Positions 12,758-33,215 of a stretch of 38,920 nt of DNA are shown here, piece after piece. The notes beneath the pieces are model-generated. The model was not told where the DNA came from and ran no database searches. It saw only the letters and a program-made list of their open reading frames with translations. The stretch is taken from NCBI GenBank assembly GCA_964534545.1, contig CAZHQS010000002.1:1-38920 (forward strand), read 5' to 3'. Source of the DNA: Candidatus Hydrothermarchaeota archaeon (GTDB lineage: Archaea > Hydrothermarchaeota > Hydrothermarchaeia > Hydrothermarchaeales > JAADFM01). The translations under genes and the position numbers were made by a program. How positions within the stretch are numbered: position 1 is the stretch's first letter; each line of letters opens with the position of its first letter.

Positions 12758-12759
12758 TA

Positions 12760-14675: not shown

Positions 14676-14785
14676 TATACCCTCTTTGTTTATTGTCACA
14701 TCGGTAAAAAATAAGAGAGATGGTTTTCCCGAGATCGAAGCCCAAGCAAATCCTATAAATACCACTAATAATCCAATAAAGGGTT

Positions 14786-17302: not shown

Positions 17303-18319
17303 TCAGCTCCAAAGCAGAACCAGATGGTACATGGCCACGGCCACGGTGGCCACCCCGGCGAAGACCAGGAAGCCTCCCAGGGACAGGAGGCTTGCCCTCC
17401 GCTGGAATCCCTCCACGGCCTCCCTGATGGTGGGGTGGGTCTTGAAGGGTTCCACCACCCCCACCAGCACTCCGAAGATGCCGCCGAAGAAGAGGGCTGT
17501 GTAGAGGGGGTAACCTAGGTAGTAGGGTCCCTGGAGGACCTCGAAGGGACAGCGGTGGTCCACGGGCAGGCCGTAGAGGAGGACGTTCATGTAGGGGCTG
17601 AAGAAGGCCATGAGGGCCACGAGGGATACCCCGAAGGTGAAAAGGGAGAGGAAGGCCACCGGGTAGGCGGCGTCCTTGCGTCTTTTAAGGTGAAGGACAT
17701 GGAGGATTGCCGTGGCGGTGACGCTGGTGTAGAAGAGGAGGGCCACCGGCAGCCTGGGGATGTTGATGAGGATGAAGCCGTAGGGGTTGGAGGCCCTCTG
17801 GAGGACCGAACCGCAGCAGGTGGTGATGACGTTGGGGTCCAGGGCGAGGAAATACTTCAGCTCAAAGAAGGTCTCCAGGGCCAGGACGGGCAGGACCAGG
17901 AGGAGCAGGCCGTACTTGAGCCTGACCAGGGGATAGTCCTCGCCCCGGGTGTCTATATAGTTGATGGCAAGCCAGGTGGAATAAAAGAACACACCGAGGA
18001 CCTTCAACCCCAGGGCCTTGAACCCGTAGGGATTGACGTTCAGGGACCCGAAGGCGCACATGGCCCCCCGCAGGGTGGTGTGGAGGGCATCGGCGGTGAA
18101 GACGAAGAGGAGGAGGGAAAGGACCTGGAAGGCCAGGACGTACTCCATGATGGTGGAGACCAGGTGGGTCTGCCGCTCCAGGGCGAGCTGTTCCTCCGAG
18201 GAGCTGTCCATGTCCCACCTCTTGAGGATCCTCACGGCCACCAGGGCGGCGTAGAGGGACAGGAGGAGGACCACCCCCAGGCCCAGGACCTGGGCAAGGA
18301 TCCATGGGTTCAGGATCAT
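17303..18319 (-). CDS. Polytopic (about 8 TM) membrane protein with conserved-looking Cys motifs, function unknown
   Basis: Hydrophobic throughout. Cys motifs GAMCAFG, TTCCGS and HRCPF. 4-nt overlap with the upstream ATPase gene places it last in the operon. Confidence 0.7.
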   Translation of the reverse strand: MILNPWILAQVLGLGVVLLLSLYAALVAVRILKRWDMDSSSEEQLALERQTHLVSTIMEYVLAFQVLSLLLFVFTADALHTTLRGAMCAFGSLNVNPYGFKALGLKVLGVFFYSTWLAINYIDTRGEDYPLVRLKYGLLLLVLPVLALETFFELKYFLALDPNVITTCCGSVLQRASNPYGFILINIPRLPVALLFYTSVTATAILHVLHLKRRKDAAYPVAFLSLFTFGVSLVALMAFFSPYMNVLLYGLPVDHRCPFEVLQGPYYLGYPLYTALFFGGIFGVLVGVVEPFKTHPTIREAVEGFQRRASLLSLGGFLVFAGVATVAVAMYHLVLLWS

Positions 18320-19002
18320 CTCTTGACCCCTGTTACCCTGCCGTCCCTCATCTCATAGACTACATCCACGAAGGTCCCCTGGTAGACCAGGGGATCGTGG
18401 GTGGCGATGATGACGGTCTGCCCCTCCCTTTTCATCTCCTCCACTATCCCGAGGAACTCCCTGGAGAGGGCGGTGTCCAGGTGGGCGGTGGGCTCGTCGG
18501 CGATGACGATCTCGGGCTTGTTCACCAGGGCCCTGGCTATGGCCACCCGCTGCTGCTCGCCCCCTGAGATCTCCTTCACCAGGTAATCAACCCTTTTCCC
18601 GAGGCCGAGTTTTTCCAGGATGTCCCTGCCCCTGGCCCTCATTTCCCTGGGCCGGACTCCCAGGGCGTAGAGGGGCAGGATGGTGTTCTCCAGGACTGTT
18701 AGGTCCCCGATGAGGTTGAACTGCTGGAAGATGAGGCCGATGTGGGCCCGCCGGTGGAGGGTGAGGAAGCGCTCAGGGAGCTTGGAGACCTCCTTTCCGG
18801 CCACGAAGACCCTGCCCGAGGTGGGTCTTGATATGCATCCAATCATGCTCAGAAGGGTGGTCTTCCCGGAACCGCTGGGGCCCATGAGGATGGTGACCTC
18901 TCCTTCCCGAGCCTCCATGGAGACCTCTCTTACGGCCGCGGTCTCGTTGGGCCTGCCCCTGTTGAAGATCTTTGTGACCTCGAGGGTTTTTACTGCTACC
19001 AT
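18316..19002 (-). CDS. ABC transporter ATP-binding protein, MacB/LolD-like (module 3)
   Basis: GPSGSGKTT, ISGGEQQRVAIARAL, VIADEPTAHLD. Confidence 0.92.
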   Translation of the reverse strand: MVAVKTLEVTKIFNRGRPNETAAVREVSMEAREGEVTILMGPSGSGKTTLLSMIGCISRPTSGRVFVAGKEVSKLPERFLTLHRRAHIGLIFQQFNLIGDLTVLENTILPLYALGVRPREMRARGRDILEKLGLGKRVDYLVKEISGGEQQRVAIARALVNKPEIVIADEPTAHLDTALSREFLGIVEEMKREGQTVIIATHDPLVYQGTFVDVVYEMRDGRVTGVKR

Positions 19003-20181
19003 TTAGATACCCCGTACTGCCACATCCGGGTCGGTGACGGCGGTCTTCCACGCCGGGATGATGATGGCCGCCATGAAGGGCACCACCGAGATGAAGAATA
19101 TCAGGAGGAGCTGGTTCAGGTCCACGTGGGGAGTCAGGGCAAAATCAGGATAGAGCACCGACCAGCCGATGAGGACGGGTTTCAGCAGGGTAGCACCCAG
19201 GTGGAAGACGTGGATATAGGCCAGGATTACCCCCAGGAGGTAGGAGTTCAGGGCGATGATGAGACCCTCGAAGGACTTTAGCGTCAGGATGTCCCCGGTG
19301 GTCCAGCCCACGGCCTTGAGGATCCCCACCTCCCTCTTCTCCTCCGCGGTGGTGGAGGACATCCTGTCAAAGGCCAGGATGGCGAAGGCCAGAAGCATCC
19401 CTGCCATGGCCGCCAGGAACATGCCGCTGCGCCAGCCGAAGATGGTCTCGTAGGTGCGCTCCAGGGCGTCCCTGGGCAGGACCCGGGTGTCGGGCAGTAT
19501 CCGGGATATCTTGCTGGCGACAGTGGGGAGCTCCGCCGGGTTCGCCACATAGACCATGAGGTCGTTGGAGCTGTCCTGCGGGATGCCGAAGAAGGCCCGG
19601 GCGTCGTCCATGTCCAGGAGGACCAGGTCGGCTGTCTGGAGGTTGGATGAGGAGGAGAAGATCCCCACCACCTGGAACTTCACGTATTTCCCTTCTGAGT
19701 TGAGGAGGATGAGCTTGTCCCCCAGCTGGATGCCCTTGAAATCGGCCAGGACCTTCCCCACCACTACCTCTCCTCTCCCGGGTCTGCGCCCCTCCTCCAG
19801 GGCGAGGCTAAAATCCTCCTCCAGGTCCAGCATATCCTCCCTGACCCCGAGGAAGGTGAAGGTGGCCCCGGTTTCCGTGTCGTAGTAGTACCCCCATACC
19901 CTGGGCACCACCCTCGAGACCCCGTTTATCTCCTGGATTTTTTCCATGTAGCCCAGGGGCACCAGGGCCTGTCGCCCCGCCACCAGCTTCTGGACGGTTA
20001 TATCCGGGGCCAGGGAGAGGGTCTCCCGGGCCTCACCCTTAAGGGCGCTGAAGAGGAAGACCTCCGAGGCGAGGACGAAGACCACCAGGACGAAGACCAG
20101 GATGGTGCCGAGGTTTTTCACCTTCTTCCGTTTAAAGGATGAGACGGAATAGTCCAGGATGTTCCGGTGCCTCTCGATCAC
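19003..20181 (-). CDS. MacB/FtsX-type ABC permease (module 3)
   Basis: N-terminal TM helix, an extracytoplasmic domain of about 200 aa, EEKREVGILKAVGWTTG, and three C-terminal TM helices. Confidence 0.85.
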   Translation of the reverse strand: MIERHRNILDYSVSSFKRKKVKNLGTILVFVLVVFVLASEVFLFSALKGEARETLSLAPDITVQKLVAGRQALVPLGYMEKIQEINGVSRVVPRVWGYYYDTETGATFTFLGVREDMLDLEEDFSLALEEGRRPGRGEVVVGKVLADFKGIQLGDKLILLNSEGKYVKFQVVGIFSSSSNLQTADLVLLDMDDARAFFGIPQDSSNDLMVYVANPAELPTVASKISRILPDTRVLPRDALERTYETIFGWRSGMFLAAMAGMLLAFAILAFDRMSSTTAEEKREVGILKAVGWTTGDILTLKSFEGLIIALNSYLLGVILAYIHVFHLGATLLKPVLIGWSVLYPDFALTPHVDLNQLLLIFFISVVPFMAAIIIPAWKTAVTDPDVAVRGI

Positions 20182-20471
20182 CTTTCCACCTCCATGGGGG
20201 CCCCGAGGCCCTCAAAGTCCGGTGGGGAGAAGCCTGCACAGGAGGCGTGGTAGCACATGGCCCCGGGCAGGTCCCTGAAGCAACCCGCCATGTCCACGGT
20301 GCTGGGGTTCCTGGTGGAGTAGCAGTCCGTGGCGATGGAAAGGTCTGTCAGCCCCAGGGGCCTCAGGGGCGGGAGCACGTCCCTTTCCATCGGCCCGGAG
20401 CCTGACAGGAGGAGGGCCAGGACACCCACCTCGAGACCCAGGACCAGAAGAACTGCTGTCGATGCCCTCAT
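20178..20471 (-). CDS. Small signal-anchored 4-Cys protein, function unknown
   Basis: 97 aa. N-terminal hydrophobic segment AVLLVLGLEVGVLALLL, then ATDCYS..MAGCFRDLPGAMCYHASCAG. ATGA-type 4-nt overlaps on both sides. Confidence 0.6.
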   Translation of the reverse strand: MRASTAVLLVLGLEVGVLALLLSGSGPMERDVLPPLRPLGLTDLSIATDCYSTRNPSTVDMAGCFRDLPGAMCYHASCAGFSPPDFEGLGAPMEVER

Positions 20472-20950
20472 TCCAACCCTATCCTCTCCATGTTCTGGAG
20501 GACCTCCTGGAAGGTCATGACCGCCCCGGAGGGATGGTCCTCCCGGAAGGACTCGGCCTTCTCCCGGTCCTGGAAGGGGACCAGCCCGTATCCCATGGGG
20601 GTGTATATTCTGGCCCTGGTGACGAAATAGGCACCCGTGGCGTCAATCCACTCCTGGGTGTAGTAGTCCCTGACGAAGACCTTCCTCACCTGGTCCTGGC
20701 CTGAGAGGCGGCTGTAGTAGATCATCAGGCACCCGGGGTCGTCGAACTTCTTCACCTTGTCCTCCAGGAAGATCTCTCCCGCCCAGTTCTCGTAGTCCTT
20801 GACGTACATGCCGCAGACCGGGCAGCGGTCCCCCTTCTCTATCTCCAGGGGGTGGATTTCTCCGGCTGTAACCTGGGAGGGGGACCCTTTCCCCATGCAG
20901 CCCAGGATAAGAAAAAGCATTGAGACGATCAGGGCAGTCCGTAGTGACAT
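20468..20950 (-). CDS. nosL: NosL-family lipoprotein (putative Cu chaperone), copy 1
   Basis: Lipobox LFLILGC. CPVCGMYV...FDDPGC and GYGLVPF motifs typical of NosL. Confidence 0.8.
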   Translation of the reverse strand: MSLRTALIVSMLFLILGCMGKGSPSQVTAGEIHPLEIEKGDRCPVCGMYVKDYENWAGEIFLEDKVKKFDDPGCLMIYYSRLSGQDQVRKVFVRDYYTQEWIDATGAYFVTRARIYTPMGYGLVPFQDREKAESFREDHPSGAVMTFQEVLQNMERIGLE

Positions 20951-21050
20951 AGTACCTTTTATCTTCGGAACTCACTTAATATAATTTTTTAAAAAACATG
21001 GCCAAGGAGGGAAGGGAATGGCTCATGTGACCTCTGATGGAGCCAGGGCT

Positions 21051-21215
21051 TTAGCCTTCTTTTGTTGTGGGTTCTTTCCCGCCTTCATCCAGCCCCTTCT
21101 GGAACTCGGACTTGGCCTTGCCCAGGGAGCGGGCAAGCTCCGGGACCTTGGAACCACCGAAGAGGAGGATGACTATCAGGAGGACTATCATGCTTTCCTG
21201 AGGACCGACAAACAT
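21051..21215 (-). CDS. tatA: Twin-arginine translocase subunit TatA/E (54 aa, absent from the ORF track)
   Basis: My own translation: MFVGPQESMIVLLIVILLFGGSKVPELARSLGKAKSEFQKGLDEGGKEPTTKEG. This gives the TatA TM helix plus the FGG.K.PEL.RSLGKA..EFKK amphipathic motif. SD AAAGGTGAAGGT lies directly upstream. Confidence 0.85.
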   Translation of the reverse strand: MFVGPQESMIVLLIVILLFGGSKVPELARSLGKAKSEFQKGLDEGGKEPTTKEG

Positions 21216-21218
21216 ACC

Positions 21219-21270
21219 TTCACCTTTAAAAGAAAAAGGAGGTGAACATGTGAGGTGTGAGGCTCACATG
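21219..21270 (-). promoter_or_regulatory. Conserved leader element upstream of tatA: 8-bp hairpin plus an anti-SD/SD helix
   Basis: On the minus-strand RNA, CAUGUGAG...CUCACAUG (21247-21254 / 21263-21270) is followed by UUCACCU (21240-21246), which is complementary to the tatA SD AGGUGAA (21219-21225). A related copy lies at 27829..27891. Confidence 0.4.
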
Positions 21271-21306
21271 CCCGTCCTCTTTAGGACCTTCAGTTGGGGT
21301 GAGGAT

Positions 21307-21984
21307 TTAACCACACCCAACTACCACGAGCTCCTCGCCCATGGCCTCATTTTGCATATCCATACCGCCCATATCCATAGAACCAGTGTCCATACTTTCA
21401 GACCCCATATCCATGCCGCCCATCTTCATCTTGAGGTCCTTCAGCAGGTCCTTGGTTATGGCATCGTAACCTATGACCTCGCCGCCGTGCTCATGGGCAA
21501 AGGCCATGGCGTCATCCATGCTTGCAAAGGGGATAACATCATCACCCATGGGACCCTGGACATCGCTTCCCTTGACGTAGTGGGCGGTCCTGGCATCGAT
21601 GTACTCCTTGGTGGAGTAGTCGGTGACGAAGACCCCGGCTATGGTGCTTGTGTCCTCTATCCAGGTCTTGTCCATGCCCATGTTGTCCAGACCCTTGAGA
21701 TATTTCAGCATGTCCTTGGGGGAGTCAAAGTGGGCGGCCGTTCCGTCTGTGAAGAGGATCTGGGCCCTCCATTCCGGGAATTTTGCGGGCATCATACCGC
21801 AGATGGGGCACTCGTCAGCCATGGTGGGCTGTACCGGTTCTATCTCCGCCGGAGGGGCGGTGGTAGGTGCAGGTGTGGCGGCCGGGGCCGCCTGCTGGGC
21901 TGGCCCTGCACAGCCAGCAAGTAGGCTGATAAGGGTTAAGGTCAAAAGCAATCCTTTTGCACTCGCTTTCATCTTTCGAATCAC
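21307..21984 (-). CDS. nosL: NosL-family lipoprotein, copy 2, with Met-rich tail and ELVVVGCG C-terminus
   Basis: Lipobox LISLLAGC. CPICGMMP...FDSPKD. Met-rich tail MKMGGMDMGSESMDTGSMDMGGMDMQNEAMG. Ends EELVVVGCG. SD GAGGTGAT. Confidence 0.8.
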   Translation of the reverse strand: MIRKMKASAKGLLLTLTLISLLAGCAGPAQQAAPAATPAPTTAPPAEIEPVQPTMADECPICGMMPAKFPEWRAQILFTDGTAAHFDSPKDMLKYLKGLDNMGMDKTWIEDTSTIAGVFVTDYSTKEYIDARTAHYVKGSDVQGPMGDDVIPFASMDDAMAFAHEHGGEVIGYDAITKDLLKDLKMKMGGMDMGSESMDTGSMDMGGMDMQNEAMGEELVVVGCG

Positions 21985-22016
21985 CTCAGTTTTTTATAAG
22001 AGTTAGCCAAAAGGGT

Positions 22017-22046
22017 CAATAAATACCTTACCAGTTGAAAGCGTTC
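22017..22046. repeat. Perfect 30-nt direct repeat, copy 1 (CAATAAATACCTTACCAGTTGAAAGCGTTC)
   Basis: Identical to 27916..27945. It lies 33 nt upstream (minus sense) of the nosL copy 2 start and contains the TATA-like GGTATTTATTG on the minus strand. Confidence 0.95.
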
Positions 22047-22191
22047 AGATAGAAGGGGAACCCTCTCGATCTAGGACATAGAGACGATTAAAATGCTGAA
22101 TATCCCGTCAGTATGCGTCCAAAAGTAAAAATTCAATCTATTTGGCCAAATATGGATAAATATAGTAAAATAGTGGCTGTGGCAGCCGAAA

Positions 22192-22650
22192 TCACAGGGT
22201 TTTCTTACCCCGGCGTCCTTCTCTCAAATCTTCAAACCTCAAAACCACCCCCTCATGTATTTCTCTGAAGGTCGAGACAGACCTGTGGTCCTTGAAGGCA
22301 ATGATGCCGCAGTTCATGGGAGTTTTAATGTCACTGTCCTTGAGATAGTAGGCGTCCTTGATTCCCACCCATTCCAATGTGCGATAATCAGCAACATGGG
22401 CATTTGAGAAGTCAGTGGTGTTATATCTAAGCAGGCAGCATATGGTGCAAAAATCGACTTTTGTGCCGTCCTTCAATGTCAGATAAGAAGAGAACCCCAG
22501 CATCTCATCGGTGATTGCCATCCCGCACTTGGCGCAAGAGTACCCAAGGTCCAGACCACCGAAGTCCCCCTCGCAGCATTCCTGTGTATACACTCCGATG
22601 TTTGCGCATCCGGCAAGGAGGACCAGGGCCAGACCGCAGATACACTTCAT
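22192..22650 (-). CDS. nosL: NosL-family lipoprotein, copy 3
   Basis: Start MKCICGLALVLLAGC at 22650, 7 nt after the upstream stop. CAKCGMAI...VDFCTICC and NCGIIAF. The longer track ORF (to 22797) overlaps the upstream gene. Confidence 0.72.
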   Translation of the reverse strand: MKCICGLALVLLAGCANIGVYTQECCEGDFGGLDLGYSCAKCGMAITDEMLGFSSYLTLKDGTKVDFCTICCLLRYNTTDFSNAHVADYRTLEWVGIKDAYYLKDSDIKTPMNCGIIAFKDHRSVSTFREIHEGVVLRFEDLREGRRGKKTL

Positions 22651-22657
22651 GGCTTTC

Positions 22658-24103
22658 TCAGCTGCCCCATCCTCCACTTGAGACCGCTTCGGTTGTAAAG
22701 GCAGCCGAGATAAACATCTCGGTCGCATTGACGGTAGCCTCTCTGTCCTTTCCCGCAATAATAATGGCGGTTTGACCTTCAACGAAGGCATCTTCAATTA
22801 CTTCGATGTCGCCCTCACTTGTATACCAGTCAACCTTTGATTTGCCGGTGCTCACCAACTCGGCAACCAGGCTGTTTGCCACCGGGCCTCCTACGAGCAC
22901 CAGGGTCTTCTCCCCTTTTTCACTCTCAGTGATCTCCTTCTCGGATTTTACAGGGATATGAGGAATGCCATTATACGAACCGGAAGCCCCGATGAGGACG
23001 TCCTTGGTCAGGAAATCATCGTAATCGGCCTTGGTCTTCTTAAGCCAGGTCTCCGGGAGGACATCACCCAAGGTCTTCTCCTTCTCTATGTCGAAGGTCT
23101 TGGCAGTCGAGAGGCTGACCCAGTATTTCGTACCGGAAATCTTTATACTCTCCCCAGGGGAGAGGGTCACTTCGGGCCCAAAGGCCGCGAACCCATTGGG
23201 GACGCCGTAATCATCATTGAATACCTTTATGAACTCATATCCTGCTGTATCTTCTATGCCGTCCGTTAGCTCTATCACATCGGATCTGTTCACAAAGGCG
23301 ATAGTTACGGTGCCGGCGCTGGCGTCCACGGTATCCAGGATCATGTGATGGTCAGGGAAGAGGTCTAAAAACTCTTTCTCTTCGACGAGTTCCGGCAGGT
23401 CGCTCTGGTTGTATGGCAACTCGAAGGACCTGTCCATAGACCCCTTGTCCCTGTCATAGACCCCCAATCGGAGGGAAAGGTTTGCTGTGATACCGAAAAC
23501 CCCTATGCTTTTAGAGGTATGAGGTACTGAGATGAAACTATTTATGTTTGCTGCATTAATGAAGGTCCTCTTGGCCACCTTTCCTATCACAATCTTCTCC
23601 CCTGCCTCTATATCCACTATGCCGTAATAATCCGTTGTCATCGCCTTCTCCTTCCAGTCGTAGTATCTGACGGTGAATATCTCCCCCTTCCGGGCGCTCG
23701 TCTTTTTGTAGCATGGTCTGAGCTTAAGATCCCTGGATTTTTCGGTGAAGTACAGATAACTGTATCTGAACTCGGCCCTCCCGGTGGTACTCTTTTTATA
23801 ATAGCTGCTCTCGTTGATGTTCGACCAGTCAAGACCCGCGAAGTCGTCGGTTAGCCATGTGATCTCAAGTTCAATACCGTCATCAATGGTTACACTTTCT
23901 GTACCGACCTCTTTTATCTTCTCGGCAATAGTGTTAGCACATTTCAGGTCTTCCGGCACGATGCCGTGGGTGTTTATTCCGACAACGACTGTTGTTCTCC
24001 CCTCCCCGTCCTGGGAGAAGATGCTCTTATCGAAGGTCAGCTCCTCTGCATGGACAAGACCTAGGGATAGCAACGCCACCAGTATCAAGGGGAGGGCCTT
24101 CAT
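22658..24103 (-). CDS. Secreted archaeal S-layer-like protein
   Basis: Signal peptide MKALPLILVALLSLGLVHA. N-terminal TVVVGINTHGIVPEDLKCANTIAEKI and C-terminal LVLVGGPVANSLVAELV motifs resemble the methanococcal-type S-layer family. The RBS AAAGGAGG lies in the end of the upstream gene. Confidence 0.65.
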   Translation of the reverse strand: MKALPLILVALLSLGLVHAEELTFDKSIFSQDGEGRTTVVVGINTHGIVPEDLKCANTIAEKIKEVGTESVTIDDGIELEITWLTDDFAGLDWSNINESSYYKKSTTGRAEFRYSYLYFTEKSRDLKLRPCYKKTSARKGEIFTVRYYDWKEKAMTTDYYGIVDIEAGEKIVIGKVAKRTFINAANINSFISVPHTSKSIGVFGITANLSLRLGVYDRDKGSMDRSFELPYNQSDLPELVEEKEFLDLFPDHHMILDTVDASAGTVTIAFVNRSDVIELTDGIEDTAGYEFIKVFNDDYGVPNGFAAFGPEVTLSPGESIKISGTKYWVSLSTAKTFDIEKEKTLGDVLPETWLKKTKADYDDFLTKDVLIGASGSYNGIPHIPVKSEKEITESEKGEKTLVLVGGPVANSLVAELVSTGKSKVDWYTSEGDIEVIEDAFVEGQTAIIIAGKDREATVNATEMFISAAFTTEAVSSGGWGS

Positions 24104-24104
24104 C

Positions 24105-25178
24105 TCAGTCTGCCTCCTTTTGGTAAAACCCCCGCATTGCCGGGATCGTGGTGGCTATGGAATAGACGCTTCCCCCACAACCTGCAACCTCATCTTCGCT
24201 GGAGAGAACCGCTGGCTCAGGCTCCCAATTTTCGCCCTTTTTGACTGCTACGACTCCTGCTACGACTCCTCCCTTCAAGAGATATTCAAGGAGGGCGGTC
24301 ACGGCACCCCCGTCCTGGGTTTCGTATTCCTTCTTGACCCTTCGGACAGCGAGGACTTCCAGATATCTCCCGATCCCGTTTTCATACTCTCCGTCCAGGG
24401 ACTTTTCGACTGTCCTGGCAGGCATGGCAGTCCTTGGGCAATTCAGGTAACAGTCATTGCAATCTTCCTCACACTCGGCGGTGGGCACCCCATCTTCCAT
24501 TTTCAAGTATCCCTTCGTACAGACCAGCTCACAGGTGCCGCAGGAGGTACAGAGCCAGTTCTCGATCACATCCGATCTAAGGTCCTGGTATTTCTTGCCG
24601 GTTGCTCTTTTTTTGACCACTTCTATGGTTATCTCGTGCTCGATATGATGTTGTTGAGAACCGTAGCTTTTTCTCCGGCTCACCTCAGCGAGAGCCCTTT
24701 CCCTTTTTTTCCCGGCTATCTTTTTAATATCGTCAATTCCACTCACTGGTTTCGTCTCGAGGACACCTTCTTCCTCTGCCGTATTTATGATGTCCAGGGC
24801 CTTTTTCGACCTTACGATGACCGTGCTCCAACCATAAGGAGAGCCTGCTGCACCAAAGGATATATCTGCGAGTTCTGCTGCGAAATCAGTGCATACCTGA
24901 CAGGCCCTTGCCGAGTAGCGGCCTGCCTCCTTCATGGGGATACTTGTTTCGCTGGAGTCGTAGGTTACCACCAGACTCCCATTCCTTACATCGAACTTCT
25001 CGATGTCCTTGAGGTCTGTGCCCACCCTCTCTTCTATCATTGCCTGAAAAGACGGGTAGCACCAGTTCTCCTGGCAGAAGAGACCGATTAAAAGACTCTC
25101 ATCTTTTCTCTCCGAAAGTAGATTCATCTTTCTCAAACCCTGGATTTGACAGGGTGTTCCAACAAACGCGATTTCCAT
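24105..25178 (-). CDS. FrhB/FdhB-family (F420-type) flavoprotein with circularly permuted domain order: C domain, 2x Cys cluster, N domain
   Basis: Starts MEIAFVGTPCQIQGLRKM...LIGLFCQENW...CQVCTDFAAELADISFGAAGSPYGWSTVIVRS (FrhB C-half). Then CTSCGTCELVC and CEEDCNDCYLNCP. Then QDGGAVTALLEYLLKGGVVAGVVAV...GSVYS (FrhB N-half). ATG 25178 lies 2 nt after the upstream stop, with GGAGGT in place. Confidence 0.8.
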   Translation of the reverse strand: MEIAFVGTPCQIQGLRKMNLLSERKDESLLIGLFCQENWCYPSFQAMIEERVGTDLKDIEKFDVRNGSLVVTYDSSETSIPMKEAGRYSARACQVCTDFAAELADISFGAAGSPYGWSTVIVRSKKALDIINTAEEEGVLETKPVSGIDDIKKIAGKKRERALAEVSRRKSYGSQQHHIEHEITIEVVKKRATGKKYQDLRSDVIENWLCTSCGTCELVCTKGYLKMEDGVPTAECEEDCNDCYLNCPRTAMPARTVEKSLDGEYENGIGRYLEVLAVRRVKKEYETQDGGAVTALLEYLLKGGVVAGVVAVKKGENWEPEPAVLSSEDEVAGCGGSVYSIATTIPAMRGFYQKEAD

Positions 25179-25180
25179 TC

Positions 25181-25435
25181 TTAAAACCTCCAAAATTCGA
25201 TTACAATGATCAAAAAAGCAAGGGCCAGAAGGGCGAATATCCCGATGCCTCTCCCATGTCTTTTTGCCATCCATAGGAGGAGGGGCACACCACCGATACC
25301 GCAGGCATAGCAGCCCGGGCATGCCCCGGTGCACAGTCTTTGAACGGTCTGGGAGCCATGGGAGAAGATGACCGGGGCTGTCGCCATTGAGAGCCCTACC
25401 AGGAACCCTTTGCCTTTTTCCAACCGGCCGCCCAT
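25181..25435 (-). CDS. Small Cys-rich membrane protein
   Basis: 84 aa with CTGACPGCYAC followed by a C-terminal TM helix (IGIFALLALAFLIIVIEFW). Abuts both neighbouring genes. Confidence 0.6.
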   Translation of the reverse strand: MGGRLEKGKGFLVGLSMATAPVIFSHGSQTVQRLCTGACPGCYACGIGGVPLLLWMAKRHGRGIGIFALLALAFLIIVIEFWRF

Positions 25436-26332
25436 CTACTTCCCCTTCTCGTATGTGATGGCCTTGTTCGGGCATGCGCTGATGCAGTCCATGCACCCAT
25501 TGCAGATGTGGCGGTCGATGGAGATCCTGTCCTCTGATCTTACTGCCCAGGTGGGACAGGACTCCACACAGAACTCTCCGCTGCACCTGCATTTTGCCAT
25601 GTCATGTTTGATCTTGTAGGTGAAAGGCAGCCTTGCCCCAATCCAGTGGGTCAGGTTCTGCAGCGCACCGGCGGGGCAGAGGAAATTGCACCACCCGCGT
25701 CCGCCCTCCAGAACGACACCCAGGACCACAAAGGTCAAAAGGAAGGTTATGATGGAGGAGGACGTAAAGGCAAACATCCCGTAACCCGTTATGCCGTCAA
25801 GATTGCCGAATAGGCCGTTCCAGACATTCTCTATCCAGGTCCAGTTGCAGTAGGCACAGCAGACGCTTTTTTTAATGAAAGGGGCAGCCACGATGAAAAA
25901 TCCTGCAAGGAAACCATATCTTATCGGCACGGGGTCCAGTTTTCCCCTCAGGTTGATCTTGAATCTCGAAGGCACAATCCTTGATAGGTGCTCGGGCATA
26001 CCTCCGGGACAGAGCCAGCCGCAGAAGAGGGGGCCGACGAAGAAGGATATGCCGATCAGGAGGAATATCAGGAGATAGAGGGGATTCCCGATAATCCGCC
26101 CAAAAAACCTCTCCGGGCTGAATACGGCCCATGTGAGGGGCATCCGGAGGCACATGGCCCGGTGCACCGTTGGCTCCGAGTTGATTGCCGCACCCCCGAT
26201 TCCAGAGTCAAGGGCCGCACAGAGCTGCCCAATCCCCACCAATAGAAGGGAGAAGGGTGCGACGAAGAGGACCATGCCCAGAAGGAAGAAAAGGAGCCTC
26301 TTTTTCAGGTGGTCTTTCCTGGCCTTGCTCAT
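25436..26332 (-). CDS. NapH/NosH/MauN-like polytopic membrane ferredoxin
   Basis: FCGWLCPGG and WCNFLCPAGA motifs after TM helices. C-terminal CRCSGEFCVESCP and CNGCMDCISACP. Start MSKARKDHLKKR at 26332 forms an ATGA overlap with the upstream stop. Confidence 0.82.
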   Translation of the reverse strand: MSKARKDHLKKRLLFFLLGMVLFVAPFSLLLVGIGQLCAALDSGIGGAAINSEPTVHRAMCLRMPLTWAVFSPERFFGRIIGNPLYLLIFLLIGISFFVGPLFCGWLCPGGMPEHLSRIVPSRFKINLRGKLDPVPIRYGFLAGFFIVAAPFIKKSVCCAYCNWTWIENVWNGLFGNLDGITGYGMFAFTSSSIITFLLTFVVLGVVLEGGRGWCNFLCPAGALQNLTHWIGARLPFTYKIKHDMAKCRCSGEFCVESCPTWAVRSEDRISIDRHICNGCMDCISACPNKAITYEKGK

Positions 26333-26892
26333 TGAGGCCGACCCCCTTCCCATGACCCCTGACCTCCACTGACTCTTTTATTGATTATCTTTATAGGTAT
26401 GGAGAGGAGGATTTCTCCTGATTTCGCATCGATTACATTGAGGTTCCCGCTGTATATCATGGGTCTTTTCTGCAGTTCTGGTGAGATGTGGAAGGTATGA
26501 TGGACCGATACCGAATCGCCGGGTTTTAGAACCCTCTCGATGGTCCTGGTCTCCAGGTTGAAATCCTTGGTATGGGAGTTGCTCCAGTGGACCTCCAGTC
26601 CTTCTGGCACATTGGTCAGTTCAAATCTAACCATGACCGGTTTCCTGGTGTTGGTGAGCCCGGTTGTGCCTCCAACGGTATCACTTGAAATCAATCTGTG
26701 GAGGAACCCGTCCTCCCCGTACTTCAGGATGATGGGCCTTGCCTTCTCGCCGGGGAACCTGTAAAACTGGTGGTATCCCTCCCCTGCCCGGACGTCCCTG
26801 TGGTAAAAGCCCAGGACGAAGGCAGAGGACAGGCCGATCAAGAACAGAATATAAGTTGATTTTTTCCGGTTCGAATGAACAACATTTGCCAT
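26329..26892 (-). CDS. Signal-anchored beta-rich protein, function unknown
   Basis: 187 aa. N-terminal TM helix (YILFLIGLSSAFVLGF) followed by beta-strand-like sequence. RBS AAGGAG. Confidence 0.65.
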   Translation of the reverse strand: MANVVHSNRKKSTYILFLIGLSSAFVLGFYHRDVRAGEGYHQFYRFPGEKARPIILKYGEDGFLHRLISSDTVGGTTGLTNTRKPVMVRFELTNVPEGLEVHWSNSHTKDFNLETRTIERVLKPGDSVSVHHTFHISPELQKRPMIYSGNLNVIDAKSGEILLSIPIKIINKRVSGGQGSWEGGRPQ

Positions 26893-26974
26893 ATATTACA
26901 CTCCTTTAGATTTAGAGGGCAGGGATGCACCCCGAGATGTGGGGCGTGCCGTACATCTGGCAGAGGACCGTCTT

Positions 26975-27000
26975 AAGAAAAAAGTGGGGGCAATGCCCCC
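26975..27000 (-). terminator. Intrinsic terminator after the C_GCAxxG_C_C gene
   Basis: On the minus strand, GGGGGCATTGCCCCC (26986-27000) is followed by ACTTTTTTCTT. Confidence 0.7.
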
Positions 27001-27010
27001 TTCACCCCTT

Positions 27011-27820
27011 TCAAGTCCCGGGCAGGTCGGGCACGCCTTCATTGTGGCAGTCGCCGCAGTTGTTCTGGGCGGTCATGTCGTGGTTTTTGGCTTGTGACCC
27101 GTGGGCCGGCGAGTAGGTCCCGTCCTTCCAGGCATTCAGGAGCTCCACGGTCTTTGCCGCCACACTGGCTGCACACCGGGCACACCTCTCCTTTCTCTCG
27201 GGACTGAAGAATGCAACATTTTCCTTCTTCATCCATTTACCTACGGAGACGTGGCAGAGGGGGGAGTTGGCTTTATTTGTATACTTGATAGTCACCTTGG
27301 GCTCGTCCGGCATGTAAGTTGGGAGCTCCTCTTTGGAGTACCAATAAATTACATCATTGAATATGGCCTCGCCGTCCTTGCCAGCTATGAGGCCGGTGAC
27401 AATACCGGTCCCGGCCAGGGTCCCGCACAGGGTACCCCAGCCTACTGCCCCGCCATGAAATCCTCTGAAGGCTTCACTGGGGAATGAAGTGTAGGGTTCT
27501 CCGACCTTCTCTGCAAGGGCTTCCATTACCCCGCTTACCACACCATAACTGCAGAAGTCCTTGTACCAGTTCTCGTAGGCGATGTCCGCCGCCCTTTTGG
27601 GATCTATCTTCTCATAGGGCATGGGCCAGGAAAGACCACCTGTCTTGACTTCAACGATCTTTTCCACTTCGACGACCCTCTCCTCGGGTTGAGACAGGCA
27701 CCCGGACAGCATGCCCAGACCCCCCGAGGCCATGGCCATTCCGGCCGTAAATCCAGCCGATCCGAAGAGGAATTCCCTTCTCGTCAGCTTCCCTTCCTCC
27801 GCAGCTTTTTCTTCAACCAT
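27011..27820 (-). CDS. Tat-signal C_GCAxxG_C_C-family redox protein with C-terminal CxxCH
   Basis: Tat signal TRREFLFGSAG...LSGC. FCSYG, GGAVGWGTLCGTLAGTG, PLCHVS, RCARCAAS. C-terminal NNCGDCHNEG. Confidence 0.8.
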   Translation of the reverse strand: MVEEKAAEEGKLTRREFLFGSAGFTAGMAMASGGLGMLSGCLSQPEERVVEVEKIVEVKTGGLSWPMPYEKIDPKRAADIAYENWYKDFCSYGVVSGVMEALAEKVGEPYTSFPSEAFRGFHGGAVGWGTLCGTLAGTGIVTGLIAGKDGEAIFNDVIYWYSKEELPTYMPDEPKVTIKYTNKANSPLCHVSVGKWMKKENVAFFSPERKERCARCAASVAAKTVELLNAWKDGTYSPAHGSQAKNHDMTAQNNCGDCHNEGVPDLPGT

Positions 27821-29209: not shown

Positions 29210-29440
29210 ATGAGTAAGGAAAACACCGGAACCCGGAAGGGAGGCCATGGCTTTGGCGATACCCTCAAGGAGGGCAGGAAGAGGCTCAAGATAAAGATGG
29301 CAGACCTGATTTATGTCCTGGACATCCAGAACAAGAACCCCCATGTGGACCGGGTCCTGGCAGACTACGGCCTGGACCGGGACACCCTGAAACGGGTCAA
29401 GGCGGCCCTGGAAAGGGGCAGGTGGAAGGTCCAGGTCTAA
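29210..29440 (+). CDS. Small basic protein (possible HTH), hypothetical
   Basis: 76-aa ORF with host-like codon usage. TGTATATAAT and the ATCGG/CCGAT palindrome lie upstream. Its stop overlaps the hemY stop on the opposite strand. Confidence 0.35.
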   Translation: MSKENTGTRKGGHGFGDTLKEGRKRLKIKMADLIYVLDIQNKNPHVDRVLADYGLDRDTLKRVKAALERGRWKVQV

Positions 29441-30867
29441 CCGCCCTTTTTCAGGTATCTAACTACCTTTTCCCCGGTCTCGGCCGCCACCCTTGAGCAG
29501 TCGTTGATTCCTATGCCGGTGTAGGAGTTGCCTGCCAGGAAGAGGCCGGGATGCTCCTTCAATCTCGCCTCCAGCCTTTCCAGCTTTTCAGAGTGCCCCA
29601 CATTGTACTGGGGGATGGCCTTGCCGTGGCGGGCAATCTTTACCATCTCGGGCTCGGCCTGGACCCCCATGATCTCCCGCAGGTCCTTCTTGACCGCCTC
29701 TATCATGTCCTGGTCCAGGAGGTCGGCGGTCTCGGGACGCCTGGCCCCCCCCACCATACACCTCAGGAGGACCTTGCCTTCGGGGGCCCTGTGGTCGTAC
29801 ATGCTGGAGTCCCAGAGGCATCCCAGGATGGTCCTGCCCTCCTCGTGGGGGACCAGGAAGCCGAAGCCCTCCAGGTCATGGCCGATTTCCTCCTTGGAAT
29901 AGCCCAGGGCCACCACCGCCAGGGGGGGATAGGGGATCTCCTCCAGGATACCTTTGATCTCCTCGTCCAGGCCCGAGAGGACCTCGGCGCAGGCGTAGGC
30001 CGGGGCGGCCATGACCACCACATCAGCCCCCAGGCTCCCGGTGCTGCCCTCTTGGTCCTGGTAATGGACGGTATATCTCCCCTCGGGGCTCATTCCGACC
30101 CGCGTCACCCTCCTGCCGGTGACGATGGCATCGCCGAGTTTCTCCTCCAGGATATCTATGATGAACTGCATTCCCTCCGGGAAGGAGGTCAGGGTGCCTC
30201 CGGGCCCCATGGGACCCCCCTTGGCCCCCGCCTTGCCCTCCTTTCTCATCTGTTTCGCCTTCTTCATCCTCCGGATCATGGCCTTTATGAGGCTGCCGCC
30301 GCCCTCCTGCTCGAGCTGGGCCATGATGGGGAAGGCGCTTTTGAGGCTGAGCCTGTAGGGGTCCCCGGCGAAGACCCCGGAGACCATGGGCCCCACCAGG
30401 TTGCGCAGGGCCTCCCTTCCGATGTGCCTCTCCACGAAGGAGGCCACGGTCTCGTCCCCGGCCTCTGGTGGTTTCGTGAAGGGCTCCCTGAGGACCCTCA
30501 GCCTCCCCTTGAGGGAGAGGACCCCGGATTTGAAAAAGCCCAGGGGGGAACTGGCCAAGAGATGGAGCTTTCCATAGGCATAGATGTACCTCTTCCTGGC
30601 CCTGTCATTGGAGGGCATGAGGCGGTCCCTTATCCCCAGGGCGTCGCAGAGCTCCAGGGTCCAGGGCTTGTTGTCCAGAAAGCCGTTGACCCCCCATTCT
30701 ATGCTGTAACCTTCCGTCTTCTCGGTCCATACCTTGCCCCCCAGCCTCCTGGAACCCTCGAGGACGGTTAGGTCTATATCCAGACCCTCCTTCTCTGCCC
30801 CCTCCATGATCCTGAAGGCCGTGGCCAGGCCTGAGAACCCACCACCCACGACTACGATTTCGGTCAT
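29437..30867 (-). CDS. hemY: Protoporphyrinogen/coproporphyrinogen III oxidase (HemY/CgoX type)
   Basis: FAD-binding fold IVVVGGGFSGLATAF, about 476 aa, C-terminal GNSYTGIGINDC. Adjacent to hemH and hemE. Confidence 0.85.
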   Translation of the reverse strand: MTEIVVVGGGFSGLATAFRIMEGAEKEGLDIDLTVLEGSRRLGGKVWTEKTEGYSIEWGVNGFLDNKPWTLELCDALGIRDRLMPSNDRARKRYIYAYGKLHLLASSPLGFFKSGVLSLKGRLRVLREPFTKPPEAGDETVASFVERHIGREALRNLVGPMVSGVFAGDPYRLSLKSAFPIMAQLEQEGGGSLIKAMIRRMKKAKQMRKEGKAGAKGGPMGPGGTLTSFPEGMQFIIDILEEKLGDAIVTGRRVTRVGMSPEGRYTVHYQDQEGSTGSLGADVVVMAAPAYACAEVLSGLDEEIKGILEEIPYPPLAVVALGYSKEEIGHDLEGFGFLVPHEEGRTILGCLWDSSMYDHRAPEGKVLLRCMVGGARRPETADLLDQDMIEAVKKDLREIMGVQAEPEMVKIARHGKAIPQYNVGHSEKLERLEARLKEHPGLFLAGNSYTGIGINDCSRVAAETGEKVVRYLKKGG

Positions 30868-30877
30868 GTAGTAACCT

Positions 30878-31822
30878 CTACTTCTGAATATTTAAAACCA
30901 TCCCGGCCAGGGCATCGATGAACTTCTCGGAAGTATTCAAAGACTCGGTGCGCCTGAAGTTGTCTATTCCCAGGGATTCAGCATATTCCCGGTACTGGAT
31001 ATCGATCTCGTAGAGGGTCTCGATGTGGTCCGAGACAAAGCTGATGGGTACCACCAGGACATCCCTGTGGCCCTTCTCTGCCAGGTTCTTTAATGTCTCC
31101 CCGAGACCGGGACCCACCCACTTGACCGGTCCCGTCCTGCTCTGGTATGCCAGGTGCCACCCCATCTCCCCCACCCTCTTCCAGACCCCATCTATGGTCC
31201 CCCTTATGTGGTCGATGTAGGGGTCCCCCTCATCCAGGAACCTCTGGGGAATGGAATGGGCGCTGAATACCACCTGGACCCGGTCTGGATTGCCAAAGGC
31301 CGAAAGTCCGTCCCTCACCTTCTCTGCCAGGGCGTCCAGGTAGCCAGGGTCATCGTAGAAGCTCTCGATCCTCCTTTCTTTAAAAGCCAGACCCAGGGTC
31401 TCCTTCACCCTCTCCAGCTCTGCGAGACATGAACCTGTGGTAGCCCTGGTATATTGAGGATAGAGGGGGAGTATCACAAGCTCCTTTATCCCGTCCTCCT
31501 TGACCTCCCACAGGGCCTCCTCCAGGGTGGGGTGCCAGTAGCGCATACCCACGTAGCACTTGCAGCCCTCCAGGCGCTCCTCCAGGGCCAGGGCCTGCTT
31601 CAGGGTGATGTCCAGGATAGGGCTCCTGCCGCCGATGCGGGCGTAGCGCCGGCGGACCTTCCGTGACCGGACCAGGGACAGAAACCTGGCAAAACCTTTC
31701 TGGAAGGGGAGGTGTATGATGTCCCTGTCCGAGAAGAGGTTGTACAGGAAGGGCTGGACCGCCTCCAGGGAATCCGGTCCACCGAGATTTAGAAGGAGCA
31801 CTCCTTTTTCTACCATAATCAC
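30878..31822 (-). CDS. hemH: Ferrochelatase (HemH/CpfC)
   Basis: LLLNLGGPDS...VQPFLYNLFSD, YPQY, FSAHSIP, SFVSDHIETLYEID. Confidence 0.88.
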   Translation of the reverse strand: MIMVEKGVLLLNLGGPDSLEAVQPFLYNLFSDRDIIHLPFQKGFARFLSLVRSRKVRRRYARIGGRSPILDITLKQALALEERLEGCKCYVGMRYWHPTLEEALWEVKEDGIKELVILPLYPQYTRATTGSCLAELERVKETLGLAFKERRIESFYDDPGYLDALAEKVRDGLSAFGNPDRVQVVFSAHSIPQRFLDEGDPYIDHIRGTIDGVWKRVGEMGWHLAYQSRTGPVKWVGPGLGETLKNLAEKGHRDVLVVPISFVSDHIETLYEIDIQYREYAESLGIDNFRRTESLNTSEKFIDALAGMVLNIQK

Positions 31823-31863
31823 CCTCCATCATAAATCCTTGCCAGGGATATAAGTATTTTCGC

Positions 31864-32895
31864 CTATCTGTGACTGAACCTCTTCACCGCCTCCACCATG
31901 GCGATGACGTTCTCCACCGGGGTGTGCTTGTTGATGCCGTGCCCCAGGTTGAAGATGTGGCCCGGCCTGCCCCCGGCCCGGTGCAGGACGTCCTTGACCC
32001 TTTCTGCGATGTAGTCCCGGGGCGCCATCAACACCATGGGGTCCAGGTTGCCCTGGATGCCCACATCATGGCCGATGCGCCCCCATGCCTCGTCTAGGGG
32101 GATGCGCCAGTCCACCCCTATCACGTCGCCCCCGGCCTCCCTCACCGACTCCAGGAAGGTGGCGGCCTGGTTGGCGAAGTGGATGACGGGAACCTCACCC
32201 TTGATCCGGTCGATGATCTTCCTGGTGTAGGGCATGGCGAACTCCCGGTAATCTGAGGGGGTCAGGCACCCTGCCCAGGAGTCGAAGAGCTGTACCGCCT
32301 GGGCCCCGGCCTCTATCTGGGCCTTCAGGTAGAGGGCCACCGTATCCGTGAGCTTCTCCATCAGAACCTCCCAGGTTTTGGGCTCCGAGAACATCATGGT
32401 CTTGGTGTGGAGGTAGTCCCTGGTGCCGCCCCCGTCCACCATATAGGAGGCCAGGGTGAAGGGCGCCCCCGAGAACCCTATCAGGGGGACACGACCCGCG
32501 AGCCTTTCCCGGAGGATCTTAACGGCCTCCAGGACATAGGACAGGGCCTCGAAGGGGTCCGGAACCTTCAGGGCCTCGGCATCTTCCCTTGTCCTCACCG
32601 GGTTGTGGATTACCGGACCCCTGCCCGGGACAAACTCCAGGTCCGCACCCATCCCTTCGAAGGGCACCAGGATGTCTGAAAAGAGGATGGCGGCATCAAC
32701 CCCAAGGCGGTCGATGGGCTGGAGGGTGACCTCTGCCGCCACCTGGGGCTTCCGGCACATCTCCAGGAAGGAGTACTTTCTTCGTACCTCCTGGTACTCC
32801 TCCATGTACCTGCCCGCCTGGCGCATGAGCCAGACTGGAGTGCGCTCCGTCTCCTCCCGGCGGCATGCTCTAAGGAAAAGGTGATCGTCTCCCAT
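31864..32895 (-). CDS. hemE: Uroporphyrinogen decarboxylase
   Basis: RTPVWLMRQAGRYMEEY, ILFSDILV, FDSWAG, NLGHGI. I chose start MGDDHLFLRAC at 32895; the longer track ORF adds a non-homologous extension. Confidence 0.88.
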   Translation of the reverse strand: MGDDHLFLRACRREETERTPVWLMRQAGRYMEEYQEVRRKYSFLEMCRKPQVAAEVTLQPIDRLGVDAAILFSDILVPFEGMGADLEFVPGRGPVIHNPVRTREDAEALKVPDPFEALSYVLEAVKILRERLAGRVPLIGFSGAPFTLASYMVDGGGTRDYLHTKTMMFSEPKTWEVLMEKLTDTVALYLKAQIEAGAQAVQLFDSWAGCLTPSDYREFAMPYTRKIIDRIKGEVPVIHFANQAATFLESVREAGGDVIGVDWRIPLDEAWGRIGHDVGIQGNLDPMVLMAPRDYIAERVKDVLHRAGGRPGHIFNLGHGINKHTPVENVIAMVEAVKRFSHR

Positions 32896-32933
32896 CAACC
32901 AAGGTGTAGGGAGAGGGGCCCATATAACCTTTT

Positions 32934-33215
32934 CTAATGGACACCCCTGACTTGCCTGGAATAGCAGTCCCTGCAATAAACCGGCCTGTCCTGATGAGGC
33001 ACGAAGGGAACCTGGGTGGCCTCCCCACACTCGGCGCAGATGGCATCATGCATCTCTCGGGAGACCCTTCCGCTGCGAGCGGCCTTCTTCCTATCCCTAC
33101 AGGCCCTGCATCTTTTGGGGTCCTGGAAGCCCTTATCCCTGTAGAAATCCTGTTCCTCGCCAGAGAAAAGGAACTCCTCCCCGCAGTCCAGGCAGATTAT
33201 GGTCCTATCTTCCAT
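32934..33215 (-). CDS. Double zinc-ribbon protein (CxxC..CxxC, twice)
   Basis: ICLDCGEEF...RCRACRDRK and ICAECGEAT...YCRDCY. Confidence 0.75.
   Translation of the reverse strand: MEDRTIICLDCGEEFLFSGEEQDFYRDKGFQDPKRCRACRDRKKAARSGRVSREMHDAICAECGEATQVPFVPHQDRPVYCRDCYSRQVRGVH

Follow-up and report, generated by a model that had tools for sequence, protein, structure and literature searches.

A 38,920-nucleotide stretch of DNA from a Candidatus Hydrothermarchaeota archaeon (contig CAZHQS010000002.1, positions 1 to 38,920; hereafter the window) encodes at positions 24,105 to 25,178 a protein of the FrhB/FdhB family which, judged from its sequence, is a clean circular permutation of the architecture in which a ferredoxin domain (Fer) is followed by the N-domain and the C-domain (Fer-N-C). 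The protein departs from the linear order of its family, where the N-domain precedes the C-domain, and is a topological variant within the same fold family, with the order C-Fer-N. We are highly confident of this architecture and of the family assignment. Through FrhB-type modules, hydrogenase, formate dehydrogenase, sulfite reductase and Fpo are coupled to the pool of coenzyme F420. Carbon monoxide dehydrogenase (CODH) and Fwd were recently added to the enzymes coupled by such modules (PMC11493965). The explanation that we find probable for the evidence as a whole is that the permuted FrhB serves as an F420 adaptor, and that its likeliest partner is the NapH-like membrane protein encoded close by.

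Domain order and gene call

Pfam placed FrhB_FdhB_C (PF04432) at aa 2–146 (profile positions 3–148 of 150, E = 6e-43) and FrhB_FdhB_N (PF04422) at aa 285–345 (profile positions 13–74 of 78, E = 1e-16), with scores of 146.7 bits (cut-off 23.3) and 61.2 bits (cut-off 22), respectively, both above the gathering thresholds. Between the two domains lie weak matches to 4Fe-4S dicluster models (aa 195–260), and the ferredoxin domain contains eight cysteines in the arrangement C210-x2-C213-x2-C216-x3-C220 and C236-x3-C240-x2-C243-x3-C247-P. An earlier note on this DNA had read the open reading frame (ORF) as beginning at the C-domain and continuing through the tail and two Cys clusters into the N-domain; the Pfam coordinates agree, and the order is C-then-N, not the normal N-then-C. 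A sequence search of the PDB gave matches in two crossed pieces: against FrhB (3zfs_C, E = 5e-46), aa 269–347 match residues 3–84 and aa 4–173 match residues 98–276, while against 8riu_B (E = 3e-44), aa 199–342 match residues 11–161 and aa 3–162 match residues 178–342.

The permutation itself was established with a doubled query, for which the window protein was joined to itself and canonical Fer-N-C homologues were aligned to the product. Each of them gave a single unbroken high-scoring segment pair of nearly full length; the canonical homologue P0125, for example, aligned over residues 4–330 of 333 (36% identity, E = 5e-69) and spanned the join. Since these alignments cross the junction of the C- and N-termini, the new termini of the window protein correspond to the interdomain linker between the N- and C-domains, and the join (...GFYQKEAD/MEIAFVGTPCQ) indeed faces that linker in the canonical proteins. 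In the sequence alignment the Fer-to-N junction is almost gapless against canonical proteins. Around 25 residues (aa 172–196) have no counterpart there and, with the FrhB tail helix, connect the old termini. The clean circular permutation proposed by the earlier note is thereby borne out.

The start of the gene is equally clear. Its ATG at 25178 lies 2 nt past the TAA of the upstream 84-aa ORF (25181–25183), and 1 nt separates the end of the gene from the next one downstream. Reading the sequence showed that the start site given before, with its GGAGGT motif and its ATG 2 nt beyond the upstream stop, was correct, and family-profile scans agreed that the upstream genes are unrelated to FrhB. 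An in-frame extension of the start to 25592 was rejected, as it overlaps two genes in other frames (those for the NapH-like and 84-aa proteins) and homologues start at MEIAF/M..VGTPCQ. Both of these upstream gene calls recur identically on independent contigs together with the window protein.

Distribution of the permuted family

The identical protein was called on five contigs, and the four of these that are shown stem from four samples. To see how far the swapped order extends, as the earlier note had suggested, we searched a collection of 5.8 billion proteins and tallied the domain order of the best 120 homologues. Of these, 114 have the order C-Fer-N and are collinear with the query (about 97% of the query, 31–43% identity), and 6 have the canonical order; the family thus comprises at least 114 clusters at 90% identity among the top matches. 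Among the best 150 representatives at 50% identity, C-Fer-N was found in 13 (query included), Fer-N-C in 119 and N-C in 15, the remaining 3 having other orders or being untallied. All 80 of the best loci in GTDB species genomes were collinear with the window protein. Within the Hydrothermarchaeota they belong to Ca. Hydrothermarchaeum profundi JdFR-18 and to Ca. Pyrohabitans JdFR-16 and JdFR-17, with several paralogues each; elsewhere they come from one metagenome-assembled genome of the Archaeoglobaceae and from many Methanobacteriaceae, including Methanobacterium oryzae DSM 11106, Methanobrevibacter cuticularis and M. curvatus. Proteins of Methanosphaera are also among the collinear homologues. 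The subfamily is characterised by a single chain of about 350–380 aa with its termini in the linker between the N- and C-domains, a pattern that the window protein fits, and both ends of the chain map to homologous sites in every permuted group. The permuted FrhB is an old, conserved and widespread archaeal family trait, not a peculiarity of the window gene or its genome.

Cofactor sites and predicted fold

The [4Fe-4S] cluster of FrhB is held by Cys104, Cys134, Cys192 and Cys195 (Mills et al., 2013, PMC3591093), to which C10, C35, C93 and C96 of the window C-domain align (against 3zfs_C). In an alignment of 70 permuted sequences, C35, C93, C96, the ferredoxin cysteines, Q288, G290 and Y339 are invariant, and C10, D289 and G291 nearly so. 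The N-domain keeps the FAD-pyrophosphate motif Q288-D-G-G291, a helix N-terminal cap, and Y339 corresponds to the Tyr of the Lys75-Tyr76 FAD loop of FrhB, the Lys being replaced by V338. The C-domain keeps the F420-pocket loop ADISFGAAGSPYGWS (GAAGSPYGW against GSVGSP..GW in FrhB).

Built from the same 70-sequence alignment, the AlphaFold2 model is compact (mean pLDDT 93.3, pTM 0.92), and none of its segments falls below 50. Helices at aa 148–171, 185–192 and 197–205 have a pLDDT above 90, and the tail aligns to the C-terminus of FrhB. FrhB chains came first in a Foldseek search of the PDB (E about 1e-12, rmsd about 2 Å over about 180 columns). The ferredoxin domain aligns with the N-terminal ferredoxin domain of 8riu_B and with the C-terminal one of FrhG. 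The topological effects of the permutation are a ferredoxin domain that is anchored at either end and a tail helix that is now internal. Since Fer, N and C still follow one another in the same cyclic order and the Fer-to-N junction is nearly gapless, we infer that the protein retains the fold and the electron wire of the solved Fer-N-C modules. The earlier note had expected the Fe-S clusters to be re-positioned relative to the flavin and F420 site, an expectation that found no support in the cyclic order, the near-gapless junction, the conserved ligands or the compact model; on alignment and model, such a re-positioning appears unlikely.

Gene neighbourhoods across the family

Permuted FrhB genes occur in several recurrent settings (locus numbers are given in brackets). 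The Methanobacteriaceae have the genes for glutamine amidotransferase (GATase), GXGXG and permuted FrhB, followed by the FMN/ferredoxin subunit of glutamate synthase (type a). In Hydrothermarchaeota, Archaeoglobaceae and others, permuted FrhB stands directly 5′ of porG-D-A-B (type b; L010, L011, L013–L015, L017–L020, L022–L024 and L026), with an overlap of stop and start in L010 and L011, a layout that suggests an F420-coupled 2-oxoacid oxidoreductase. In L010, two FrhB paralogues of the canonical order Fer-N-C are also encoded, a few kb upstream. At six loci of Hydrothermarchaeota the order is napA, a small ORF, napG, napH, napD, permuted FrhB and a multihaem cytochrome (type c; L008, L025, L027, L028, L093 and L094); in L008 and L094 a COX1-family gene comes next. 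This cluster suggests a periplasmic nitrate reductase linked to F420; NapADGH is listed by Carr et al. (2019), who leave the FrhB gene unmentioned. In a further setting permuted FrhB overlaps the start of mtd (type d), as in L038 (9914–12198), where the permuted FrhB is extended at both termini, measures 487 aa and overlaps the gene for the F420-dependent methylene-H4MPT dehydrogenase. A CofH-like radical S-adenosylmethionine (SAM) gene adjoins in type e, for example just upstream in L021 (16–2277). Stand-alone copies have no recognisable partner adjacent (type f; L012 and L016). A second permuted paralogue of Methanobrevibacter likewise lies outside the glutamate-synthase operon without a recognisable partner (L043, L051, L058, L062, L073 and others).

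The enzymes encoded alongside permuted FrhB in types a to c have a ferredoxin-type domain with 2x[4Fe-4S], which fits the plug-in role as F420 adaptor played by the canonical zeta subunit of CODH and by FwdI. By analogy, these settings suggest that the permuted FrhB may act as a plug-in F420 adaptor for varied partner enzymes.

The neighbourhood in the window

The features of the window gene and its neighbours are collected in Table 1. All lie on the reverse strand. No gap separates the gene for the NapH-like protein from that for the 84-aa protein, and 118 nt separate the gene for the split-Soret-cytochrome-like protein from that for the 187-aa protein. The former of these two products matched the split-Soret cytochrome c model of NCBIfam with E = 5.6e-45, below the family cut-off. 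The NapH-like protein has four predicted transmembrane (TM) segments, two CX3CP motifs, a C-terminal 2x[4Fe-4S] region and a Fer4_5 domain, and its basic N-terminus argues for a cytoplasmic location of the clusters, which is thus predicted. For the 187-aa protein, the AlphaFold model is only moderately confident (pLDDT 62) and Foldseek found generic Ig-like folds and a FixG-related domain, matches that we take as no more than a lead. Downstream of the permuted FrhB, an S-layer-like gene (22658–24103) is followed by three NosL lipoprotein genes (20468–22797); several pairs of genes in this run touch or overlap, with spacings from −4 to 1 nt, and the middle NosL gene is set off from its neighbours by 207 and 356 nt. 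Within 23000–27000 we found no composition break and no DNA repeats of note.

Table 1. Features of the permuted FrhB gene and of its surroundings in the window.
Feature	Coordinates	Strand	Evidence
Twin-arginine translocation (TAT)-signal protein, 269 aa, C_GCAxxG_C_C domain, C-terminal CGDCH haem motif	27011..27820	−	Pfam, NCBIfam
187-aa protein, N-terminal TM helix and beta-sandwich, cassette gene one	26329..26892	−	Predictions, AlphaFold, Foldseek
NapH-like membrane Fe-S protein, 305 aa	25436..26353	−	Pfam, NCBIfam, TM prediction
84-aa Cys-rich protein (C35-x3-C-x2-C-x2-C45), C-terminal hydrophobic segment aa 63–81, cassette gene three	25181..25435	−	
GGAGGT, Shine-Dalgarno-like, 7 nt 5′ of the permuted FrhB ATG	25186..25191	−	Sequence read
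Circularly permuted FrhB-family protein, 357 aa, C-domain/linker/2x[4Fe-4S] ferredoxin/N-domain	24105..25178	−	Pfam, PDB sequence matches, doubled-query alignment
FrhB_FdhB_C domain, aa 2–146	24741..25175	−	Pfam
FrhB C-terminal tail helix and new linker, aa 147–197, from old C-terminus to ferredoxin domain	24588..24740	−	Model, alignment
2x[4Fe-4S] ferredoxin domain, aa 198–262	24393..24587	−	Weak Pfam matches, PDB alignment, Cys motifs
FrhB_FdhB_N domain, aa 263–350	24129..24392	−	Pfam, PDB alignment
Downstream same-strand genes: S-layer-like, three NosL, 97-aa, MacB/FtsX permease, ATP-binding cassette (ABC) ATPase, 7-TM	17303..24103	−	

The three genes preceding the permuted FrhB form a cassette that occurs in bacteria and archaea, consisting of a protein of about 180 aa with a TM helix and a beta-sandwich, a NapH-like 4-TM protein with 2x[4Fe-4S] and a small CX3CX2CX2C protein of about 87 aa; copies lie at 25181–26892 (−) in the window, at 6691–8385 in L095 and at 6858–8525 in L097, and an FrhB-type gene follows the window copy only. 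In the rest of the window, MfnB (4-HFC-P synthase, of methanofuran biosynthesis) stands beside a B12-binding radical-SAM protein and a PqqD-like peptide chaperone (34813–35520 and 33262–34808, both on the reverse strand). Genes for a HemY-like flavin amine oxidase (476 aa), ferrochelatase (314 aa) and uroporphyrinogen decarboxylase (388 aa) are adjacent at 29437–33030 (−), and this trio represents a haem branch of the protoporphyrin or coproporphyrin type near the c-type cytochrome-like gene. Such a branch is unusual in archaea, which normally use the sirohaem route. The 39-kb window also contains three ABC systems of the MacB/FtsX type (1544–2743, 11126–14810 and 17303–20181), one of which follows the three NosL genes, and a CopD-like membrane protein that includes a cytochrome b5-like segment (8079–9029).

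Proposed function and alternative explanations

According to the model that we propose, the N-terminal “C-domain” and the C-terminal “N-domain” would together build an F420-oxidoreductase core with FAD and one [4Fe-4S] cluster, and electrons would pass along the series F420(H2) <-> FAD <-> [4Fe-4S] <-> 2x[4Fe-4S]. The recurring neighbourhoods suggest that the permuted FrhB is a plug-in linking the F420 pool to partners that expose ferredoxin-type clusters, and there is precedent for this in solved structures, where FrhB-type modules dock on such clusters (PMC11493965). In the window it would dock on the NapH-like four-helix protein, whose 2x[4Fe-4S] clusters are predicted to face the cytoplasm, and electrons from F420H2 would be fed through that protein into a membrane or extracytoplasmic system; candidate end acceptors are the TAT-exported split-Soret-cytochrome-like protein and the NosL copper proteins. 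NapH is encoded just upstream of permuted FrhB in two otherwise different operon types. Because of the adjacency in the window and the independent pairing of napH, napD and permuted FrhB, the NapH-like protein is the candidate partner that we place first, with a confidence that falls somewhat short of expecting it to be right. If the pairing is functional, it would give archaea a new path for F420H2 electrons to membrane or extracytoplasmic acceptors.

Several observations weigh against this explanation. The IGKGK turn of the F420 pocket in FrhB reads VRNGS in the window protein and its lysines are not retained; the Foldseek alignment to FrhB covers the C-domain alone, and since Foldseek is order-dependent and aligns just that domain, it is no test of whole-fold equivalence. 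The cassette is found without FrhB in a bacterium (L095/L096, beside a TonB-dependent receptor gene; identities of 59%, 64% and 50%) and in Ca. Pyrohabitans (35%, 49% and 42%), so it is independent of the permuted FrhB and the adjacency could be incidental. The closest permuted FrhB is about 43% identical, while relatives of the NapH-like protein reach 66%, which implies that the two genes do not share a long history. The window holds no F420-biosynthesis gene, MfnB being its sole hint of methanogen-type C1 cofactor chemistry, and for the glutamate-synthase setting of the family, Kaster et al. (2011) say that the assignment “remains to be proven.” It looks as if the window organism appended an F420 module to a pre-existing membrane Fe-S cassette.

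Among the alternatives, an artefact, be it a fusion of two adjacent canonical copies in assembly or a gene wrongly called or cut short, would have the unusual domain order as its sole point, and we regard it as refuted for practical purposes: the protein recurs on five contigs, more than 100 collinear homologues exist, some from isolate genomes, as do the 80 collinear genome loci, neither repeats nor a composition break surround the gene, and the sequence upstream of it encodes other genes. A permutation that re-wires the protein, placing the ferredoxin clusters differently relative to FAD and F420, could appeal to the double tether of the ferredoxin domain, to the tail that is internal here while in the zeta subunit of Ethanoperedens a C-terminal extension mediates dimerisation, and to the Foldseek comparison with FdhB (N-C-Fer), which spans about 315 columns at an rmsd of 9 Å. 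Circular permutants generally retain their fold, however, and with the cyclic order unchanged, the Fer-to-N junction nearly gapless and the model compact and confident, we find re-wiring quite improbable. Even less credible to us is that the protein is independent of F420 and, like HCAR and BciB of the FrhB family, reduces an organic substrate with ferredoxin electrons. HCAR (5dqr) is a weak relative in structure and sequence, and the F420-turn lysines are not conserved in the window copy, but F420 enzymes match far better (E = 1e-46 to 1e-36, compared with 0.025 for HCAR), family members adjoin Mtd and CofH-like genes, and the hosts are F420-using archaea.

The remaining alternatives accept an F420-linked protein and differ in its partner. 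It is possible, if doubtful, that the window protein is a free-standing soluble F420:ferredoxin-type oxidoreductase whose place after the NapH-like cassette reflects incidental packing. Some family members do lack a partner gene (L012 and L016, and the paralogue in L043, L051 and L073), the cassette exists without FrhB in other organisms, and the placement of the window protein among the subgroups is unstable, as it joins the Nap-linked group in only 74 of 200 neighbour-joining (NJ) bootstraps. On the other hand, gaps of only 2 nt and 1 nt separate the gene from its neighbours inside a same-strand run of membrane and exported proteins, and the Hydrothermarchaeota nap clusters provide a second, independent pairing of NapH with permuted FrhB. 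We consider it unlikely that the cassette is a split cupric reductase of the CcoG/FixG type, with the permuted FrhB as its F420H2-oxidising donor and Cu(I) supplied to the downstream NosL. Such a reading could draw on the Fer4_5 domain and 2x[4Fe-4S] of the NapH-like protein, CcoG carrying two tetranuclear Fe-S clusters according to a review that also describes its physiological electron donor as not known; on the FixG-related Ig-like domain 2r39, the second-best Foldseek match of the 187-aa protein (E = 6e-5, TMt 0.61); and on the three NosL genes, the CopD-like gene and the small CX3CX2CX2C protein in the window. Yet NapH/MauN score best in NCBIfam and no CcoG model is among the 25 listed, the 187-aa protein has no FixG_C match in Pfam, and its model of pLDDT 62 fits generic Ig-like folds just as well.

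To return to the F420 adaptor with a NapH-like partner, a bolder version of it, which we put forward tentatively, is that the permuted FrhB is a dedicated cytoplasmic F420H2-oxidising input module for membrane Fe-S proteins of the NapH/CcoG type. If true, this would explain the purpose of the cytoplasmic clusters of such proteins in archaea, and the Hydrothermarchaeota would gain an F420-driven periplasmic nitrate reductase (napAGHD with permuted FrhB). In the window organism, F420-driven export would then carry electrons to a cytochrome or copper (NosL) system outside the cytoplasm, possibly as an F420H2:Cu(II) reductase, which would name a physiological donor for a CcoG-like reductase.

Origin of the permutation

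Duplication followed by truncation is the textbook route to circular permutation, and the earlier note had proposed it for this gene. It may apply here, yet no Fer-N-C-Fer-N duplication intermediate was found among the best 150 representatives. Two candidate intermediates were examined and rejected: in P0183 (Fer-N-C-polyferredoxin, 593 aa) the C-to-Fer junction is not convincingly homologous, and P0263 has merely a long tail. NJ trees of the N- and C-domains (193 and 144 taxa, with bootstraps) distribute the permuted proteins over 3 to 9 poorly resolved clades and speak neither for nor against a single origin. Where the window protein does not group with the Nap-linked members, it falls near the POR-linked and stand-alone groups. 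Breakpoints are identical across the permuted groups, and against the query the ferredoxin domains of both permuted clades reach roughly double the score of canonical ones (median 43 against 22 bits). Linker profiles (aa 172–196) of the Hydrothermarchaeota type and of Methanobacteriaceae have no similarity detectable by hhalign in this short region (P = 0.41).

Comparison with known systems

The three modules of the window protein, namely the 2x[4Fe-4S] ferredoxin domain, the F420-reductase core with FAD and [4Fe-4S], and the tail helix, are all present in the zeta subunit of CODH (8RIU_B) and in FwdI (8RJA_E) of Ca. Ethanoperedens thermophilum (E = 3e-44 and 7e-41), both shown structurally to be plug-in F420 adaptors on ferredoxin-dependent enzymes (PMC11493965). 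These have the order Fer-N-C, with the ferredoxin domain N-terminal and free at one end, whereas the window protein has C-Fer-N; the cyclic order Fer-N-C is common to the window protein, Fsr-N, FpoF, zeta and FwdI. FrhB itself (3ZFS/4OMF/4CI0, 6QGR and 9R51) is the best match in sequence (E = 5e-46) and in structure, and its cluster cysteines and FAD motifs are alike, but its order is N-C and the ferredoxin domain resides in FrhG, while the window protein has its own internally. FdhB (7BKB_E and 8RVU_E) resembles the window protein in having a ferredoxin-type domain after the C-domain, and the orders N-C-Fer, Fer-N-C and C-Fer-N can all be read off a single ring by starting at different points; the match to FdhB is much weaker (E = 1e-13 to 1e-11, rmsd about 9 Å) and its N-domain is N-terminal. 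The NapH-like neighbour shares with NapH the four TM segments, the two CX3CP motifs and the C-terminal 2x[4Fe-4S]. It differs in scoring 52.9 bits against the NapH family (NCBIfam cut-off 213), and no NapG or NapA is among the window ORFs scanned, whereas the genuine napAGHD clusters of Hydrothermarchaeota also carry a permuted FrhB.

A swapped order has been described before. The legend to Figure 9 of Mills et al. (2013, eLife, PMC3591093) reports swapped halves in the FrhB-like subunit of the glutamate synthase of Methanothermobacter marburgensis. Other authors have met the same group of proteins without mention of the domain order or permutation: Kaster et al. (2011) list MTBMA_c06440/MTH193 as “subunit 4,” Susanti and Mukhopadhyay (2012) describe FGltS(II)-alpha as an “FdhB homolog” that departs from Fsr-N in sequence, and Chadwick et al. 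(2022) catalogue FrhB paralogues beside PFOR, CODH and glutamate-synthase genes. Our full-text literature searches for FrhB together with circular permutation returned nothing relevant, and no description of the breadth and the other genomic contexts of the permuted FrhB was found in the searchable literature texts. Annotation tools and alignments that assume N-then-C misdescribe these proteins, for example as “FrhB C-terminal domain protein” or “FdhB homolog.” As a widespread subfamily with recurrent neighbourhoods, they are a clear target for structural and enzymatic work.

Among the closest known systems is the FrhB-like “subunit 4” of the putative F420-dependent glutamate synthase of Methanothermobacter (MTBMA_c06440/ADL58239, MTH193; FGltS(II)-alpha), which has the same swapped order (Mills et al., 2013). 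Its likeness to the window protein rests on related proteins of Methanobacteriaceae and on that published description; the glutamate-synthase-linked members (for example, P0064 and P0083) align collinearly to about 97% of the window protein, with identities of 31–36%. The window gene stands apart in lying outside a glutamate-synthase operon, with no glutamate-synthase gene (GATase, GXGXG or FMN subunit) within 6 kb of it or among the window ORFs scanned, and in belonging to the Hydrothermarchaeota-type branch, where its best identity is about 43%. The swapped order was thus already known for one branch of the family, and the new point here is where the gene lies, next to one for a NapH-like membrane protein.

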